This document shows, piece after piece, positions 14,688 to 33,427 of a DNA stretch of 64,000 bases (its first letter is position 1; every line of letters starts with the position of its first letter). Origin of the DNA: a virus (taxonomy: Duplodnaviria; Caudoviricetes); IMG/VR virus record IMGVR_UViG_3300031867_000013, positions 32,001 through 96,000 of that record; one strand, given 5' to 3'. Made by a program: the position numbers and the translations under genes. The notes beneath the pieces were generated by a model that saw only the letters and a list, made by a program, of their open reading frames with translations, did not search any database and had not been told where the DNA came from.

Positions 14688-16214
14688 TTATCCAAAAACT
14701 TTGTCTATTACTGCATATCGAGGTACATTAAGCTGTTCTACAAGAGCCTTATATGGGTCTAATTGTGAACTCATTACCATACTCATAAGGTTCTTACTAA
14801 ACCCGCTAAGAAGAACAACTCCCATTTCATTCTCTGTCAGCGGAATCGTACCTGTACGACTATTTACATTCCAAAATACTAACTTTGGAAGTTTATAACC
14901 TTTTGCCGCAAACCTATTACGTATTGTTTCAAACAATGCTTCATTTACTGTTGGTGTTCTTTCTCCCCAAAAAGAATTACCATTAGCCACTCCGTCAAAT
15001 TCACAATCCGTGATGATAAGCACTGTATTAGGCATTTCGTCCTGCGACATATGATTCTTTACTGCTGTATCAAGAATCAAATCAAATGTTGCTTCGATAT
15101 TTGTATTAGAGCAATCATTATATTTATGCATAATATTAAGATTACCAAATAAGGTATCACTATTTACAGTTACCATTTGTGGCTTACTGCTAAATGTAAT
15201 AAACTTATTCTTAAATTCTCCACTATTATTTTGAGCGCAATATAATGAAATTGCACTTGCTACATCTAATGCAGAAACATTACTATTACCAATAGTAACT
15301 GTCATAGAACCACTACCATCACGTACAACAAGTGTATTTTTGAAACCTTCTACCTTGTCTTGTGCGTTCCATAATGCTTCTAGTGTTTCATCGACACCAT
15401 TAAACCGACCATAGTTAAATGCACCATACTTATGCACAATATCATGTAAAAACATAGCTTGTGCATTAATCTTTGTTTCACCATTTTTAAGTGATTCAAG
15501 ATATTCTATACGACGCTTTTCATCGTGTTTCATAAAAGCAAAACCATAATTAAGATTTGCCTTTGATGGAACAGCACTATATTCAATATCGTTCCACTCA
15601 TTTGCAGACATTTTACGTTCTACAATATCAATATGCTTACGTAACTTGCTAAGAACTTTACGATATTCCTTTGAACTAAATTCAAACCATTTCTTAATGA
15701 TATGACCGCGCTTAACTGTTTCTGCACTTGACGCATTAACAGATGGCATCCACTTAGCCAAAAGTGAAATAGGTTTACCTTCTTTATAGTTCTTCATATC
15801 GTCAATAAATTGTCCGATTACACGACTACGAATTGCAAGTTGTACTTTCTTGCTCTTTGTATTAAAATAAATATCAAGAATATCATCCCAACGACCATAT
15901 TCTGCAATATCCACTTCATTAATTAGCTTTACTGCAATATCTTCGTGTGCCTTTGCAAGATAAACCATAAATTCTCTAAATGATTTACGTTCACCTACAC
16001 CACCACGAACATCACGCAAAAATAGAAGCCATTTTAAAGTAAGCACTTTATCTTCATTAAGTGCTTCTTCAAATAATGCAGTATCTACTTCTGTACGGAA
16101 AGAAGGAATTGCAAAATTAAGGTCTACAATCTTATGACCTTCTGTAGCAAAACCTACTGCACCATTTTCTGTTAGCTTCTTCTCATTCTTCTCCATTGCT
16201 TTGATAAAACTCAT
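14688..16214 (-). CDS. DUF2828-family protein (TROVE/Ro60-like helical domain plus vWA domain)
   Basis: 'TENGA', 'RDVRGGVGER', 'EYGRWDD', 'SLLAKWMPS', MIDAS 'DGSGSM', 'TDCEFD', 'PKLVFWNV', 'LSGFS' motifs. Confidence 0.85.
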   Translation of the reverse strand: MSFIKAMEKNEKKLTENGAVGFATEGHKIVDLNFAIPSFRTEVDTALFEEALNEDKVLTLKWLLFLRDVRGGVGERKSFREFMVYLAKAHEDIAVKLINEVDIAEYGRWDDILDIYFNTKSKKVQLAIRSRVIGQFIDDMKNYKEGKPISLLAKWMPSVNASSAETVKRGHIIKKWFEFSSKEYRKVLSKLRKHIDIVERKMSANEWNDIEYSAVPSKANLNYGFAFMKHDEKRRIEYLESLKNGETKINAQAMFLHDIVHKYGAFNYGRFNGVDETLEALWNAQDKVEGFKNTLVVRDGSGSMTVTIGNSNVSALDVASAISLYCAQNNSGEFKNKFITFSSKPQMVTVNSDTLFGNLNIMHKYNDCSNTNIEATFDLILDTAVKNHMSQDEMPNTVLIITDCEFDGVANGNSFWGERTPTVNEALFETIRNRFAAKGYKLPKLVFWNVNSRTGTIPLTENEMGVVLLSGFSKNLMSMVMSSQLDPYKALVEQLNVPRYAVIDKVFG

Positions 16215-19084: not shown

Positions 19085-19182
19085 TACTCCTAAATAATTT
19101 TTGTATATATTATATTACATTTTTATCTTTTTTGAAATAGCAAAAAAGTCCTATTTATTTTCCAAACACCTTTTCGATTTCC

Positions 19183-19250
19183 TACATATTTATACATATT
19201 TATACATATTTATATTTTAAATACTTATTAAATACTTATTAAATACTTAG
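19183..19250. repeat. Short tandem repeats (TACATATTTA x3; AAATACTTATT x3) in the AT-rich divergent intergenic region
   Basis: Directly visible direct repeats. Confidence 0.6.
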
Positions 19251-19512
19251 ATAAATATAAGATAATAAAATATAAAAACAATATATAACACAAGCATATT
19301 TATATGCTTGTCAGTTATATTATAATAAAGAGTATTTAATATATCTTTCTTAATATTATAGAATATTATTATTATTATTTATTATTACTTATGTATAAAT
19401 ATGTTATATAGGGTAGCACACAAAATTTAATTTGTCAATAGGAAAAAAGTCCTATTTTTAATAAACCAAAAGTCTTATTTTTAATTATTTTCAAAAAGTA
19501 ATAAAAAATATG

Positions 19513-19633: not shown

Positions 19634-20155
19634 TTGAAACCTGTTATATCAAGCAAAAATACAAAAGGAATGGTAAATTTTACAAAATCTATGGTTCATA
19701 GTATAGCAAATATAGCTTCTGTATCTCCAAGAAGTTTAGCTTTATTTTTAGCTTTATGTTCTTATGCTGATGACAATGGTTCATTAATTACAGACAATAA
19801 AACATTAGCACATTTAGTTAAAACAGAAACAAGAAAAATTGATTATTGTTTAAGAACACTACAGGAACATGGATTAATAGAAATACATAATGTAAATATT
19901 AAATATAATCACGATATATTTGGTAAAATACATGATAAACAAAATTATTATAAAACTAATAAACAAGAATGGAATATTACAGGAGATAGATATTTAACTA
20001 CAATAACTATTAGTGGTACATATAAAAGAATTTATCTTAATAAAGAATATGTTTCTTTTGCTAATGGTTATTATAATACATTATTATTATATGTTAAAAA
20101 TAATTTATACTATGATACAAGATTATCAGACAATCAAATTATTGAAGAAAGGTGA
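19634..20155 (+). CDS. RepL-like winged-helix DNA-binding protein
   Basis: 'LFLALCSYADDNGSLITDNKTLAHLV..ETRKIDYCLRTLQEHGLI'; AAGGAGG RBS, TTG start. Confidence 0.5.
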   Translation: MKPVISSKNTKGMVNFTKSMVHSIANIASVSPRSLALFLALCSYADDNGSLITDNKTLAHLVKTETRKIDYCLRTLQEHGLIEIHNVNIKYNHDIFGKIHDKQNYYKTNKQEWNITGDRYLTTITISGTYKRIYLNKEYVSFANGYYNTLLLYVKNNLYYDTRLSDNQIIEER

Positions 20156-20160
20156 GAATT

Positions 20161-20334
20161 ATGGAAGTACAAAATGCAAACTTAAATATTCGTATTCCTC
20201 TTAAACTTAGGGAGAGATTTGTAGAAGTAGCAAACAATAATGGTTTAACACATTCTGTTGTTTTGCGTACAATGGTAGCAGAATATGTAAGAGCAAATGG
20301 AAAACTAGAAATATTTAAACATATTGGTAAATAA
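20161..20334 (+). CDS. Ribbon-helix-helix DNA-binding protein
   Basis: 'NLNIRIPLKLRERF...NGLTHSVVLR'. Confidence 0.65.
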   Translation: MEVQNANLNIRIPLKLRERFVEVANNNGLTHSVVLRTMVAEYVRANGKLEIFKHIGK

Positions 20335-26168: not shown

Positions 26169-26616
26169 TATTTTTATAGTTTTATATTTTTATATGTATA
26201 TACAAAAGGTAATTCAAAATTCTCCAAAAATTTTTCGACACAAAGAGGATATACATATAAGAAGTGAAATATTATTTAGTGTTTTTGAGGCATTTCATTT
26301 AGTATTTTTGGGGTGTATTATTATATGTTTTTGGGATAAATAATGTTCAATATAATAGACATTATAATTTATAGCGCAATAAAATTTATATGGCGCAACA
26401 TAAAGATATAAATACATATATTTAAATAAATTTCGGCAAAAACATAAAGGTGCAGAATTTAATTAAAAATCTATTTGGGCGAAAAAATAAATAAAGAAAA
26501 GAAGATAAGTATATAGATAAAAAATAATATAATATGCTATAATTACATTTTGACATATAGCGTTACATAGGGGTAACTTGAAGTCTGAAAAAATTTGAAC
26601 GACTGGAATAACGTAT

Positions 26617-26772
26617 TGAGAACGATTCTCACTTGAACCCCGCGGAGGTAGTTGAGAATGATGATCAGTTGAGAACGATTCTTAATTGATAATGGATTCT
26701 CATTTGAGAATGGTTTTCATTTGGGAATGATTCGTAATTGATAATACGTTCTCAAATGAGAATGGATTCTCA
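26617..26772. repeat. Array of 8 Fur-box-like palindromes (TGAKAAT-N1-2-ATTCTCA), 17-18 bp period
   Basis: Copies start at 26617, 26653, 26670, 26687, 26705, 26722, 26739, 26757. Confidence 0.75.
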
Positions 26773-28389: not shown

Positions 28390-28602
28390 ATGAAGCCGAT
28401 TGCTTATTATGCTTTATTCGTTGATTTCCTCATTATGATATATGATATTGAGTACGGGATTAATGATTATATAATATATACATATAAAACACCATCGAAG
28501 GAAAGCAGGAAATTTAAGGCGAAAATTAGATATGATAAGGCAGGAAACGCCTATTTTCGGCAAAAGAATCCTGTACCGCTTTCGGAGTGCATGAAATATT
28601 AA
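28390..28602 (+). CDS. Hypothetical protein
   Basis: AGGAGG RBS, followed by terminator AAGCCCCA/TGGGGCTT. Confidence 0.55.
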   Translation: MKPIAYYALFVDFLIMIYDIEYGINDYIIYTYKTPSKESRKFKAKIRYDKAGNAYFRQKNPVPLSECMKY

Positions 28603-28643
28603 GCCCCATTTGGGGCTTTTTTATTGCCTATAAAACAGTACAT

Positions 28644-29373
28644 AATATTCTGAATATTTTTACTATTTCTTGATACATAATTATCAGAATATTATAAACA
28701 TTATAATATATCACAATATTTTGCCAATGCCATAGAATTATCAGAAAATTAAGATGTGTCATAATATTATGTTAATCATCTGAAATTGTCAGAATATTGT
28801 ATGTATCATAATATTCTGAAAACTAGATGTGCATGAATTGTCAGAATATTAAAAACATTATATGTATTTGAATGAATTGTACATAGAACGAATACAATTT
28901 AATATGTCAATAGGAAAAAAGTCCAAAATGTATGTTCTATATAAAAAATAGGAGTAAAGTCTATTGACACATAAAAACAAGGGCAAATAGTCCTATTATT
29001 TTAGAACAAAAATCGAACACTTCTAAGCCTTGCAATTATTGAAAAATCGTCATAGACGGACGAAAATCTATGTGCCTATATAAATATATGCAGACAACAT
29101 AAAAAACGATTCTAGGGGCATTTACGGGCGAATAAAGGGTATTTCTATATATTCATATATACCCATATTTTCCCTAAAAATATTTTTGTCTTTGACTTTT
29201 TGACTTATATGCAAGTTGTCAGAATATTATAAATACACATAATATTTATAGTATTATTAATATTATACTAATTATTTGATGCTATACATTTGTAAATTAA
29301 CATAATTTTCTGTCAATTTATATATCTATAATATTTTGAAAATTCAATAGATACATAAAGTTGTCAGAATATT
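28644..29373. promoter_or_regulatory. CodY-box-like cluster 1 (about 10 sites)
   Basis: e.g. AATTATCAGAAAATT 28736, AATTGTCAGAATATT 28784 and 28836, AATTTTCTGTCAATT 29304; consensus AATTTTCWGAAAATT. Confidence 0.65.
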
Positions 29374-29670
29374 TTGCAATATATGTGTCAATGGGAAATA
29401 TGTCTTATTTTTATTTGTCAATAGACCATAAGACTTATTTTTATATTTATTATATTTTCGCGTCACATAGGGATATAGAAAAATGTATATGGCTTTTATT
29501 CGTGCATAAATAGGGCTACAATCAATTTTTATATGCTATTGGTATATCTATATAAGGATAAAATAAAAAGGGCTTAAATAGCCCTTTATGCTTGTTATAT
29601 TGAATTGTGTATATAAAAAGACAATTCCCCTGCCGTAATTAGCAGGGGAAATATAGGGAAGATTATTTTA

Positions 29671-30588
29671 TCAGCCTACCAATGTTGAAAGCAATTCTAA
29701 AGCATTGTCAAGCAAAGCATTTCCGCGAATAACGCTTTTCATTTGATTTTCCCTGTAGGTCTTGGTCATGCGGGCAGGTTCAGAATGATAGGCAAAATCC
29801 GATACAGCCTGCAAAAATCCATAAGCTGTGCCGCGCAAATTGCCTAAATCATCAGCGTTATAGGCTGAAATTAAGCCGCTACGTTGATTTTCCACGATGT
29901 CCCGTTTGCGCGGCGTAGCGTCAGCAGGGAGCGGGAGCAAATTCCCAACGAGCGCATTAAACATAGTGTTTGAAACGTGAATACTTGCAAGGCGTTCTGT
30001 TTCTTGCTGAAAAATGGTACGATAGGAATTTTCATGTTCCATGATATTCCCGACCATTTCCAACTTCCCTGCTACGTCTCCTTTGTGGAGAAGGGAAAAC
30101 GACCGAACGGCTTTCTTGAAGGCAAGGTTCAAAGTGTTAGAACAAGCAGGACGGACGGGAGTGATGGCGGCGCGAATTGCGCCTTTCCCATCATGCGTAC
30201 TTGAGAAAACAACATACATTTTCATTGATTCGCCAAGGGTCATAAATTCGGGGACTTCTACGCACATCCATATTGTTTTGCCACCACTGACAATTCCCGC
30301 CGAAACGAATTTGAAATCTGTCAAATACGTTAAGAAGGAAAAAGCATCTTTGTTTTGTACGGTCTGATAACGGTCTGATACCACACCAAGAAAAGCGTTA
30401 TTGTCAGAACGGACGTTTACCTTCATGGGTGTTTCGAGGATATTACCGTCTGCAAGGCGAATCAATGCGGGAGTTTGTACGACTTCCCAGTTCATATCAG
30501 CAAGGGAAATTGCGCTTTCCACATCCACCGCGCCCGAAATATCCTGTCCATACTTCCAAGGCTCTACACGATTCATCATTTTCAACAT
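29671..30588 (-). CDS. DUF932-family phage/plasmid protein
   Basis: 'LGVVSDRYQTVQNKDAFSF', 'STHDGKGA', 'TPVRPACSNTL', 'GTAYGFLQAVSDFAYH'. Confidence 0.85.
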   Translation of the reverse strand: MLKMMNRVEPWKYGQDISGAVDVESAISLADMNWEVVQTPALIRLADGNILETPMKVNVRSDNNAFLGVVSDRYQTVQNKDAFSFLTYLTDFKFVSAGIVSGGKTIWMCVEVPEFMTLGESMKMYVVFSSTHDGKGAIRAAITPVRPACSNTLNLAFKKAVRSFSLLHKGDVAGKLEMVGNIMEHENSYRTIFQQETERLASIHVSNTMFNALVGNLLPLPADATPRKRDIVENQRSGLISAYNADDLGNLRGTAYGFLQAVSDFAYHSEPARMTKTYRENQMKSVIRGNALLDNALELLSTLVG

Positions 30589-30778
30589 TTTCAACACTCC
30601 TTTTTTAAAATAGATGATTAACCTATACATATTAAACCACAAACAAATAATTATTGCAAGCATTTTTTTTATAAAAATCATAAAAAAATTTTCCTTCCTA
30701 TTATAAGGGAAAAATTTTTATAATTTACATATCTATTGAAATTGAGAATAATTTTTATTTGCCCATCGAGGATTTTAT

Positions 30779-31107
30779 AATTTTCTGACAATTCCATAGG
30801 AAGATATAATAATATTCTGAAAATTTCAGGCGAATAGAGGAACACAAAATTTTCTGAAAATTTATAAAAATTTGACTTCCATATAATTGTTTTAAGCGAT
30901 TTTTTCAGACTATTCCATATATTTATACTAATAAGAATTTTTCGTGTCTTAAAACTAATTTCTTAAAGTATTGAAAATACTGACTTTTCAGGCTATTATG
31001 ACAATTATAAACATAAATGTAAATATTCTGAATATTATACTAAATATTTAATGTATGGATTCTTATATATAGTATAATATTCTGACAGATATAATATTCT
31101 GATAATT
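30779..31107. promoter_or_regulatory. CodY-box-like cluster 2, upstream of the DUF932 gene
   Basis: Perfect AATTTTCTGAAAATT at 30848; near-matches at 30779, 30811, 31022, 31076, 31093. Confidence 0.65.
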
Positions 31108-31233
31108 TTATGGCGCAAATAAAGATTTCAAAAAATTATGTGTTCCTTTAATAGATTAAAGTATAAAAATGTCAAGATATATATATACAATAAAAAATTC
31201 CCCCGCAAAAAGCAGGGGAATATGTATATATAT

Positions 31234-31410
31234 TTATTCTTCCTCCTTTTGTACGTCTACGACTTCTTTTACACCCAAGAAACGGAAATTATGCAAGTCA
31301 GAAGGAGTAAACCACTTTTTGCTTGCAATTTTAGCCGCTTCTTTTTCGTTCTTTGCATCAACGTAAATCTCCCCCGTAAAAACAACGTCTACTTGCACTT
31401 GATACGTCAT
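31234..31410 (-). CDS. Small hypothetical protein (58 aa)
   Basis: AAGGAGATGT RBS; MTYQVQVDVVFTGEIYVDAKNEKEAAKIA...; terminator downstream. Confidence 0.6.
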   Translation of the reverse strand: MTYQVQVDVVFTGEIYVDAKNEKEAAKIASKKWFTPSDLHNFRFLGVKEVVDVQKEEE

Positions 31411-31526
31411 AAGAACATCTCCTTTTCATATAATAAATTCAACCTAACTATATTATACACATTACAGGATATAATGCAAGTGTTTTTTATAAAAAATCCT
31501 AAAATATTTTTCTTTCTATTATAAGG

Positions 31527-32667
31527 AATTGTCAGAATATTTAGTGTCTTTTGACAATGCACATTTGTTGGAACATTTTGTATTCTATATATGGTAAAAA
31601 TCATACTATTCTGAATATTTGCCTTGCTAGAGTAAGAGATTAAATTTTCAGAAAATTTCAAATTTGTCCACGGCATATCAAAATTTTCAGAAAAATCTAA
31701 ATAATATAATACGTCAAATATATCTGAAATGTGCATAAATACTGACAATTAGGAATATTTCGGCGCAAACAAAAAGGAAACATAATATTCAGAAAATTAG
31801 GCAATTTTTTCCTATATAGAGAAATACAAATTAGTCAGAAAATTATAAAATATAAGAATAATATAATATGTCAGAATATAGGCGCAACATAAAGGAATAT
31901 GAATTTTCAGATAATTCTTATATATCTTATTATTCTTATATTTCGCGCAAAACAAAAAGGGATAAATATTCAGACAATTATATATAATCATATATTTCTA
32001 TATAATATTATATTTCTATATATAATATAATAATCAGACAATATAGAATATTATATGTATTCTACCAATATACATTTGTCAGAAAGTTTTGTATTTTCCT
32101 ATAGGGAAAATTTATACTTTTCTGAAAACTTTCCTTGCGGCACTAAGGAAGTATAATTATCAGAAAATTATGATTTTGTCCACGAATAATCTGAAATTTA
32201 ATATTCTGACAATTTAAAATAAACTTTTTACTTGACAAATACAAATATAGGCAAATAGTACCAATAAAATAGAATGTATGTACGGGCTGGGAAGCCTTGA
32301 AATTAAAGGAAAATCGTCTGTATTCGACGAAAAAAGACTACCGAATATAAATATATGCGTACCATATAAAAAACGACTGGCAAGGCTGCCAGATAGGTTA
32401 AAATGGATTTTAAGTATTGACAAAAACCTAAAATTTTATCATTCTTTGACTTTTTGTCCAATAAAGTTATATGTCTATATATAATATAAATAGACATAAT
32501 AATATGAATTGTCAGAAAATTAGGGCGCGGCAAAAAACAAAAAAGAGAAAGAGAATCATTATATATAGAGAGAATATATATCAAATGAAAATAATTATTA
32601 TTATATGATAATGATTATAGCTATATATATAGACAATATTGCTATTTTTCATAGTTTTCTGAAAATT
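31527..32667. promoter_or_regulatory. CodY-box-like cluster 3 (about 15 sites)
   Basis: Perfect AATTTTCAGAAAATT at 31643; near-matches at ~31527, 31682, 31784, 31902, 31965, 32155, 32200, 32507, 32653. Confidence 0.65.
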
Positions 32668-33138
32668 TCTATATTTATGGTTCTTTAGTGTATTAAAGCA
32701 CTAAATTAGTATGCTATTAACGTATTTATTCTTCTTTTCTTTAGTATAGTAAAGTAAGCGAGCGAAACAGGGAATATTTTTCACTTTTTGTCAATACTTC
32801 AAATTTTCAAAATTTAATATGAATAAAAACTATTTTCTTAATACTATAAATTTTCTATTTATTATTAATACTCTAAAATATAATTCTATATATTCTTTCT
32901 TTCTATATATCCATATATTTATATACTATCCCTCTTTCTTTTTTGTTTTTTGCGCCCAGGATAGTTTTATATATTATAGTATTATATTTATATATATTAG
33001 ACTTTATATATACTCCCATCTTTTTCTTTGTTTTCCGCGCCAAATATATATTATAGTTATATATAAAACATTATATTATGTATCCTCTTTTCTTTTTATT
33101 TTTGCCGCCAAAATATCCTTGAAATATACTTTATTTTA

Positions 33139-33268: not shown

Positions 33269-33427
33269 TAGACAAATAAAAAAGCAGGAAAATTATATTC
33301 CCTGCTTATATATATTATAAGTTTTTTATTCCTTTTATAATATTATCTATTTTTTCATTGTATTCCGTTTCAAGTTTATATTGCCTATAATCATCACTAT
33401 ATTGTGGATAAGGATATTTATAATTTT

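Follow-up and report, generated by a model that had tools for sequence, protein, structure and literature searches.

An array of CodY-box-like sites where two gene arms converge in a virulent-looking phage from the cattle gut

Results

Organization of the box-bearing region

The source of the examined DNA is a 118-kb virulent-looking phage from the cattle gut (bovine gut metagenome; 117,886 bp for the whole record), and positions refer to the 64-kb stretch of it that was analysed, here referred to as the window. At the site where two long gene arms converge, about 3.5 kb of non-coding DNA is spanned by an array of 15-bp boxes, and this block makes up about 3% of the genome (Table 1). From the sigma-A-type promoters, the strong Shine-Dalgarno sites and the nearest PolA relatives, which are found in Clostridium phages, we infer a host of Firmicute type.

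Table 1 Features of the region from 28.6 to 33.4 kb of the window
Feature	Position	Strand	Remarks
Intrinsic terminator, end of the plus-strand gene arm (19.6-28.6 kb)	28601..28618	+	First box starts 20 nt past its T-run
Block 1a	28644..28850		Seven TCWGA-centred boxes, six with at most 2 mismatches; three boxes 26 bp apart with a conserved ATGTRYAT spacer
Sigma-A-like promoter-like element, TTGGCA-16-TATAAT (11/12), leftward	28700..28727	-	Consensus match only; box 28679 at about +7, box 28644 at about +42
Element A, about 250 nt	28950..29215	+	TTGACA-16-AATAGT and conserved hairpin TCGTC-N7-GACGA; bracketed by boxes
Block 1b	29214..29373		Four boxes: 29214, 29304, 29330, 29359
Terminator of the DUF932 gene	29625..29650	-	
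DUF932 / phrog_1221 gene	29671..30588	-	Likely start ATG at 30588 behind AAGGAG
Predicted promoter of the DUF932 gene	30631-30659		TTGCAA-17-TTTAAT
Block 2	30779..31107		Boxes 30779, 30811, 30848 (perfect), 31022, 31076, 31093; all kept in L072
Promoter-like element, TTCAGA-17-TATAAT	31004..31032	-	Towards DUF932; its -35 is the core of box 31022; 100% identical in L072
Terminator of the 58-aa gene	31197..31221	-	
58-aa gene	31234..31410	-	No family match
Predicted promoter of the 58-aa gene	31452-31479		TTGCAT-16-TATAAT
Block 3	31527..32214		About 17 boxes including the perfect 31643; interspersed GGCGCAA-type repeats and two TTTGTCCACG words
Element B	32225..32470	+	Paralogue of element A; box 32200 ends 17 nt before its TTGACA
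Last two boxes	32507..32667		32507 and 32653
Terminator, end of the long minus-strand arm (33.4 kb to beyond 64 kb)	33282..33307	-	

A sequence-only reading of the window had described three box-dense non-coding blocks, which were recovered here at 28644-28850 with 29214-29373, at 30779-31107 and at 31527-32667. Its statement that no promoter in the first cluster needs regulating was wrong as it stood, as an 11/12 sigma-A-like promoter is present there, with a box at about +7, and the cluster also flanks a promoter-bearing 260-nt element (element A). Five promoter-like elements carry boxes at -35, at +1 or downstream. The nearest boxes to the predicted promoters of the DUF932 and 58-aa genes lie about 95 nt or more than 120 nt upstream, and the majority of boxes are clear of any recognisable promoter.

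No Rfam family reached the gathering score in the region from 28.4 to 33.4 kb, where a threshold of E <= 1 gave only two chance-level matches. Folding of elements A and B yielded z-scores of only -1.0 to -2.0, and none of the other phages examined contained a further copy of these 250-nt elements.

Enrichment and confinement of the boxes

Within positions 28644-32667, 32 boxes with at most 3 mismatches to AATTTTCWGAAAATT were counted, which bears out the earlier estimate of about 30 CodY-box-like sites; 24 have at most 2 mismatches, 11 at most 1, and the two perfect copies reported at 30848 and 31643 were both confirmed. As an AT-matched control we used 3,493 bp of local non-coding DNA (23% GC), from which dinucleotide shuffles gave 0.00, 0.20 and 1.86 boxes at <=1, <=2 and <=3 mismatches, respectively, and order-4 Markov copies gave 0.4 and 2.4 boxes. 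Enrichment over such a background, which the sequence-only reading had proposed as a check, was thus found, with 24 boxes at <=2 mismatches against 0.2 expected. In the whole window, 47 boxes with at most 3 mismatches were present against 22 expected from shuffles (shuffle maximum 35). When the search covered the whole 117,886-bp genome, every box with at most 1 mismatch fell inside 28644-32667, and only 2 boxes with at most 2 mismatches were located in the other 113 kb.

Arrays of three boxes are nearly absent from bacteria: 10 matches were detected in 596 Gb of genomes, all of them in MAG contigs, and several of these are coding repeats. The MAG matches labelled Prevotella, Bacteroidales and Ruminococcus were rejected as box arrays since they are coding or other tandem repeats, and thus they provide no evidence for non-Firmicute hosts.

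Conservation in a related fragment

Searches for close relatives, with the DUF932 protein and PolA as queries in IMG/VR and by blastn against GenBank phages, returned none. A metagenome scan yielded one 1-kb fragment of a relative, L072, in which 100 of 105 box positions are identical (95%) against 592 of 724 positions of the other non-coding DNA (82%; Fisher p = 2e-4), so that the conservation in related phages for which the earlier reading had suggested looking was observed. The few changes within boxes affect only positions 2, 4, 5 and 12. The 58-aa gene is only 59% identical at the nucleotide level, with conserved flanks. Chance ORFs within the blocks are interrupted in L072 by a 38-nt insertion and an 8-nt deletion, and the blocks are therefore considered non-coding. 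As judged from this comparison, the boxes are under purifying selection. Being above chance and conserved in a relative, they match what is expected of host-regulator sites on a lytic phage of the phi29 Spo0A-box type.

Match to the CodY operator

The empirical motif of the boxes is AATWDTCWGAHWATT, and their identification with the CodY consensus held, as they form a 15-bp pseudo-palindrome near AATTTTCWGAAAATT with two perfect copies. According to the position counts, T6, C7, G9, A10 and the outer AAT/ATT are near-invariant (each at least 83% conserved), while positions 4-5 and 11-12 are free. Of the other regulators considered, none of the consensuses known to us for DegU, Spo0A, the ARG-box or ComK fits the 15-bp palindrome.

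The CodY operators of Bacillota comprise the 15-nt box AATTTTCWGAAAATT and 24-nt overlapping double sites (PMC10415144, PMC5314169, Wray and Fisher 2011). CodY-DNA crystal structures show a fixed outer ATT, a fixed T before C and readout of the inner AT positions by shape, and the fixed and free positions of the phage boxes fit these contacts (PMC10415144). Furthermore, variants found in the phage, such as AATATTCTGACAATT, are predicted boxes upstream of the CodY-dependent thrC and ilv of Streptococcus salivarius (PMC5966866). Consensus, fixed and free positions and variants are alike in the two.

On the other hand, number and arrangement differ. CodY operators lie upstream of host metabolic genes with 1-3 boxes, whereas about 30 predicted sites lie within 3.5 kb in the source phage, and overlapping boxes are typical of the former, whereas most boxes of the latter are solitary. 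Single 15-nt sites are bound by CodY more weakly and without cooperativity, while higher-order CodY oligomers can assemble at overlapping sites with a 9-bp offset (PMC10415144). This cooperative arrangement (6-nt overlap, 9-bp offset) is absent from the source phage: no pair of boxes is 9 or 18 bp apart, a partner with no more than 5 mismatches is present at only 7 of the 48 positions at +/-9, and the spacings (26, 35, 39 bp and so on) are out of 9-bp register.

The same box in other phages

The same box forms arrays in five further IMG/VR phages (G001-G005), with position 5 occupied by T, G and A at 72/20/9% compared to 69/21/10% in the source phage. The proteins that the source phage has in common with these five are only a dUTPase, RNR, PhoH and Ro-like and Pnkp-type proteins. 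The dUTPase was checked as a common binder for the source phage and four others, and was dismissed.

In the other array phages, neighbouring boxes are 9, 18, 27, 36 or 45 bp apart, mostly in 9-bp steps as in overlapping CodY operators, and the 9-bp offset was seen in G001, G002, L068, L062 and others. Gene-free runs in this phase reach about 560 bp, strong promoters have a sharp class of boxes centred near -63, and single boxes in each intergenic region also occur. The arrays lie in terminal repeats or adjoin small terminase genes.

Among cultured phages, non-coding matches were detected in those of Bacillus (40 records, often in terminal repeats), Staphylococcus/Mammaliicoccus, Clostridium sporogenes, Listeria and Streptococcus, and all of the non-coding matches listed belong to phages of CodY-bearing Firmicutes. 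Phages of Acinetobacter, Pseudoalteromonas and Klebsiella were also matched. The Acinetobacter and Pseudoalteromonas matches listed were rejected; they are single stretches of about 31-41 nt, at no more than two places per record, inside annotated genes (portal genes in the case of Acinetobacter). The host label of 'Arcanobacterium phage TPWB06' is doubtful, because this phage has a GC content of 27% and is 80% identical at the nucleotide level to one from Mammaliicoccus. In one case, a 140-kb phage contig carrying an array was binned with a MAG that has codY, the binning of phage contigs being unreliable.

The recurrence of one box with the same variants in phages of unrelated proteomes favours a host factor over phage-specific iterons. 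The phage thus probably senses a host regulator or sequesters it.

Discussion

Host CodY as the putative binder

On balance, we favour, with limited confidence, the reading that the boxes are operators bound by the CodY of the Firmicute-type host. No matches to the CodY HTH, HTH_3 (XRE) or Phage_integrase were found in the whole 118-kb record, and as the phage lacks a CodY HTH, an XRE-HTH and an integrase-fold repressor of its own, host CodY is the best candidate.

The binder would be a winged-helix regulator that acts as a dimer and shares the DNA specificity of CodY. After DNA entry, CodY dimers loaded with Ile and GTP would occupy the boxes. Locally, the few sigma-A-type promoters of the block, with boxes at -35, at +1 or just downstream, would be placed under nutrient control, as would both small minus-strand genes and both 250-nt elements, and bound dimers could form roadblocks where the gene arms converge. 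Globally, some 30-35 strong sites per genome, multiplied by replication, would compete for about 10^4 CodY protomers per cell, and late in infection the host CodY regulon, and with it the amino-acid supply, would be derepressed. If CodY does bind, both gating and titration are expected; the sheer number of sites suggests that capacity matters.

Alternative explanations

A possible, though unlikely, alternative is that the boxes are operators or iterons of a phage-encoded protein, or of a protein that travels with the array as a mobile module. Ribbon-helix-helix and TubR-type proteins coat tandem short repeats, and a small ribbon-helix-helix or winged-helix protein might coat the region and silence the junction promoters; some boxes do lie at -35 or +1 of promoter-like sites. 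The source phage encodes a ribbon-helix-helix protein (20161-20334) and an HTH_36/DnaD-like protein (19634-20155); however, no box lies near either gene, and thus there is no sign of autoregulation. Many small ORFs lack an assignment, and a small, fast-evolving binder would escape BLAST and Pfam comparisons. Nevertheless, BLAST detected no DNA-binding protein common to the array phages, which share with the source phage only enzyme families of nucleotide metabolism and RNA repair. Two further points speak against such a protein from within the block itself: the 58-aa ORF diverges fast while the boxes stay fixed, and no homologue of the DUF932 protein was found in G001-G005. Moreover, motif and variant frequencies are constant across lineages, whereas phage repressor-operator pairs usually drift.

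We consider it distinctly unlikely that, with CodY bound, the array is a pure decoy, local promoter control being incidental. Titration of CodY as genomes multiply would then switch on the amino-acid uptake and synthesis of the starving-cell programme in a well-fed cell, a strategy that would be common to many unrelated Bacillota phages. The array has about 30 strong sites, 11 of them within 1 mismatch, where 2-4 would suffice for regulation. The roughly 3% of the genome given to the block and the long gene-free phased runs of other phages fit a decoy as well, and by our arithmetic a few hundred genome copies would match the CodY pool. However, the -63 class and the one-site-per-intergenic-region arrangement in other phages look regulatory, and boxes of the source phage coincide with conserved promoter-like elements.

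It is very improbable that the boxes have no dedicated binder and serve instead as promoter or UP-like modules, as repeats that bend the DNA, as recombination hot spots where cassettes are exchanged, or within an origin or packaging site. A strict 15-bp palindrome in which the TCWGA core is invariant and other positions are free points to a site for a dimeric protein, and the 9-bp phasing of other phages misfits promoter geometry. Moreover, the excess of promoter-like elements is only 73 against 49 expected, and a replication-initiator-like gene with its own direct repeats lies 9 kb away (19.1-20.2 kb). What speaks for such roles is that TTGTCA occurs within box variants and TAATAT arises where a T precedes a box, so that neighbours at 26-bp spacing mimic -35 and -10 elements, that the 58-aa gene is highly diverged between conserved box-rich flanks, as after cassette swapping, and that other phages carry their arrays in terminal repeats or beside small terminase genes. 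Replication-origin iterons were rejected, the boxes being palindromic and the DnaD/Rep-like gene at 19634-20155 having direct repeats at 19.16-19.26 kb.

Relation to known systems

Host-regulator sites are known from the virulent Bacillus phages phi29 and Nf, which carry Spo0A boxes and parS sites. In these lytic phages of Firmicutes, several sites for a host global regulator make development follow host physiology, as they may in the source phage. In phi29, however, a handful of Spo0A sites lie at the main promoters, whereas the source phage has dozens of CodY-type sites in a non-coding block, and to our knowledge no titration role has been proposed for phi29.

High-affinity site clusters lower the free regulator according to copy number at datA, which binds DnaA, and in the handcuffing of plasmid iterons. 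There the replicon's own initiator is titrated, whereas in the source phage a host metabolic regulator would be. Our literature search found neither papers describing such phage arrays nor a published precedent for a virus that titrates a host metabolic regulator.

The SPBRE of SPbeta, a large Bacillus phage, is likewise a repeated 15-bp element; it recurs in many intergenic regions and is bound by one protein, the master repressor MrpR (PMC10516654). MrpR is phage-encoded and has an integrase fold, whereas the source phage, which looks virulent, has no integrase-fold protein, and its motif, unlike SPBRE, is common to unrelated phages. Neither the cognate repressor nor the lineage-specific motif of a phage repressor-operator set, whether of the CI/Cro or the MrpR/SPBRE type, was thus found.

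If CodY binds, many Firmicute phages would tie their development to the host nutrient sensor, or disarm it, by DNA sites alone. This would add a new layer of phage-host metabolic control, explain the long conserved non-coding tracts in such genomes and concern phages ranging from those of the rumen to the Bastille-type and Twort-type phages considered for therapy. The source phage represents a dispersed-site example of the array, and cultured pairs in which the prediction can be tested are B. cereus with Bastille-like phages, Mammaliicoccus sciuri with Sextaecvirus and C. sporogenes with phi8074-B1.

Box sites and architecture of the inter-arm block

The CodY-box-like 15-bp palindromes that the sequence-only reading had reported at 28644-32667, in three non-coding blocks, proved genuine when counted against controls, and their empirical motif in the phage is AATWDTCWGAHWATT. 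They are located where two long gene arms converge; apart from two genes and two paralogous elements, the remainder of this inter-arm block is occupied by boxes. The first block (28.6-29.4 kb) had been described as having no promoter to regulate, which is contradicted by an 11/12 sigma-A consensus match inside it. For the sigma-A-like promoters of the two genes (DUF932 and 58-aa), the closest boxes are ~95 nt and >120 nt upstream.

Features of the box-bearing region (window positions)
Feature	Position	Strand	Remarks
+ arm	19.6-28.6 kb	+	terminated at 28601-28618
Sigma-A-like promoter, 11/12	28700-28727	-	boxes at about +7 and about +42; consensus match only
~250-nt element, first copy	28950-29215		75% column identity between copies; boxes on both sides
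Promoter-like site	-35 = box 29214	+	consensus match only
Promoter-like site	box 30811 at about -2		consensus match only
Promoter-like site	-35 = box 31022		consensus match only; 100% identity in relative L072
58-aa gene	31234-31410, between arms	-	small transcription unit; own sigma-A-like promoter and terminator
DUF932 gene	between arms	-	small transcription unit; own sigma-A-like promoter and terminator
~250-nt element, second copy	32225-32470		75% column identity between copies; boxes on both sides
arm	33.4 kb to past 64 kb	-	terminated at 33282-33307

Conservation of the boxes in a relative

One relative was found, the 1,036-bp metagenome contig L072, which spans 30.62-31.62 kb. In the alignment of the seven boxes common to the phage and L072, 100/105 positions were identical, compared with 592/724 positions of the non-box non-coding DNA (Fisher test, p = 2e-4), and the five box differences, at positions 2, 4, 5 and 12, preserved the motif every time. 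Because the boxes outmatch the other non-coding DNA and their changes retain the motif, this comparison indicates that they are under purifying selection. The 58-aa gene showed just 59% nucleotide identity to L072 (105/177 positions), as against 82-100% for its promoter, flanks and boxes, and its protein keeps the pattern M.YQ.Q.DV.FTGE.Y..AK..KEAA...NFRFL...EEE; from the alignment, it has the appearance of a cassette that was exchanged or evolves fast, with box-rich conserved borders on either side.

Box arrays in other phages and in bacteria

A search of IMG/VR (2.9 million contigs) for pairs of boxes at a distance of 8-38 bp gave 31 loci, many with 13-27 boxes. In the five whole genomes compared (G001-G005, 82-123 kb), boxes were restricted to a single region per genome; just one of the five has direct terminal repeats, and there the region is at the genome ends. 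The reversed pattern, used as a control, scored zero. These genomes have core genes common to one another, and only dUTPase, RNR, PhoH, a Ro-like protein and a Pnkp-type domain in common with our phage. Box position preferences were alike in our phage and in G001-G005, with T at position 4 in ~2/3 of sites and T/G/A at position 5 in 69/21/10% vs 72/20/9%, respectively. Neighbouring boxes in the other phages were mostly spaced by 9, 18, 27, 36 or 45 bp (such spacings in 12/12 cases in L068, 13/17 in G002 and 10/13 in G001), and in some arrays the 9-bp phasing continues unbroken over several hundred bp.

Cultured phages with BLAST matches to array sequence in their non-coding DNA are Bastille-type and other Bacillus phages (40 records, the match often lying a few hundred bp away from an end of the genome), the Sextaecvirus phages that infect Mammaliicoccus and Staphylococcus, Twort (in its long terminal repeat), Clostridium sporogenes phage phi8074-B1, Listeria P70 and Streptococcus phages. 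Acinetobacter phages were rejected as array carriers, the matches listed being short and within portal genes. In 596 Gb of bacterial genomes a triple-box pattern occurred just 10 times, all on MAG contigs; several occurrences were coding repeats and one was a complete 140-kb phage.

In L011 (3700-10860) and G005 (17.9-31.7 kb), each small early-type gene cassette follows the order terminator, 1-2 boxes, conserved ~100 nt and TTGACA-17-TATAAT, and a subset of boxes in this phage group stops 18-19 nt short of the -35, with the centre near -63 (19 cases). At 520-700 of L009, a second array, of GAGAGTTGACSG repeats, adjoins a box array with 9-bp phasing and a gene for the small terminase. In another locus, L077 (2114-4162; genome 98114-100162), an intein that carries a LAGLIDADG endonuclease splits an RNA/DNA-ligase-type gene.

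Phage identity and probable host

The source record is a 117,886 bp IMG/VR virus from bovine gut, estimated as complete by CheckV, of which bases 32001-96000 form the window. The phage (30% GC) encodes portal, major tail and tail-fibre proteins, a replication set (PolA, clamp loader, DnaB-type helicase, primase and SNF2 helicase), ThyX, dUTPase and RNR for nucleotide metabolism, a Pnkp/RNA-ligase fusion, a Ro60-like protein, eight tRNAs and one tmRNA. Homologues of the Ro60-like protein (14688-16214) are present in three array-bearing phages, namely G003, G005 and the 140-kb contig. The phage looks virulent, since neither an integrase fold nor an XRE-type HTH was detected across the whole 117,886-bp record. 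Its closest PolA relatives belong to Clostridium, Streptococcus and Bacillus phages (35-37% identity), and it has sigma-A-type promoters and strong-SD ribosome-binding sites; therefore, we infer a Firmicute host.

Comparison with CodY operators and possible binders

The consensus was correctly identified in the sequence-only reading, as it equals the published CodY box (PMC5314169). In CodY crystal structures each protomer makes only two base-specific contacts, the remainder being shape readout, and two dimers sit on two boxes with a 6 nt overlap, i.e. a 9-bp offset, with extra dimers addable on either side (PMC10415144). These features agree with which positions are fixed and which are free in the phage box, and with the 9-bp phasing of the other array phages. 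Variants favoured by the phage are among the predicted boxes upstream of the CodY-dependent thrC and ilv genes of S. salivarius (PMC5966866). However, the boxes of our phage are solitary, which speaks against equating them outright with CodY operators: no box pairs at 9 or 18 bp were found in it, only 7 of 48 partners at +/-9 have 5 or fewer mismatches, and single boxes bind CodY more weakly and non-cooperatively (PMC10415144).

We lean towards occupancy of the array by host CodY. Those local promoters whose boxes lie at -35, +1 or downstream would then be gated or blocked depending on Ile/GTP levels, and the ~30-35 strong sites of each genome, their number rising as it replicates, would compete for a CodY pool estimated at up to 10,000 protomers per cell (PMC5314169). 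That there are so many sites, taking up 3% of the genome, suggests that capacity (titration) is relevant. In other phages, the sharp site class near -63 of strong promoters and the one site per intergenic region suggest a regulatory role. A binder encoded by the phage itself is the less probable reading. In its favour, small proteins can diverge past BLAST detection and the phage has both an RHH and an HTH_36 protein; against it, protein comparison detected no DNA-binding family common to the phage and G001-G005. Full-text literature searches turned up no publication that describes CodY boxes in phages. The closest precedent for host-regulator-type sites on a phage is phi29, which reportedly uses host Spo0A boxes.

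Other repeats in the window

Both ~250-nt elements contain TTGACA-16-AATAGT and the tail TCTTTGACTTTTTG, which is conserved, as is their hairpin TCGTC-N7-GACGA except for its variable loop; the elements may be small-RNA genes, their fold z-scores are weak, and no further copies were found in the phages compared. At 26617-26772, about eight 7-1-7 palindromes similar to TGAGAAT-N-ATTCTCA stand in tandem. The array resembles Fur/PerR/Zur sites in design, with G/C at the fourth position, and may be a second host-regulator-like site set.

GC-punctuated repeats, GGCGCAA(A/C)A(A/T)AAAGG, occur at 26350-26500, 31108-31960 and 32522-32560, and inverted at 32930-33110, frequently a few bases from a box; in the unrelated phage L011, CGGCA precedes boxes and TGCCG...CGGCA hairpins flank them. 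The family TTGTCAATAGGAAAAAAGTCCTATTTTTA and its variants (18455, 19432, 28903 and 29383-29441) are found at both ends of the + arm and within the first block. Two copies of TTTGTCCACG (31666-31675 and 32176-32185), with two mismatches to the DnaA box, each lie between two CodY-type boxes within a repeated 45-nt unit. Direct repeats at 19160-19260 (CATATTTATA and AAATACTTATT, three copies each) precede genes for a DnaD/Rep-like HTH_36 protein and a ribbon-helix-helix protein (19634-20334), with a consensus promoter in front, and the replication origin is more plausibly placed at this locus than among the boxes.
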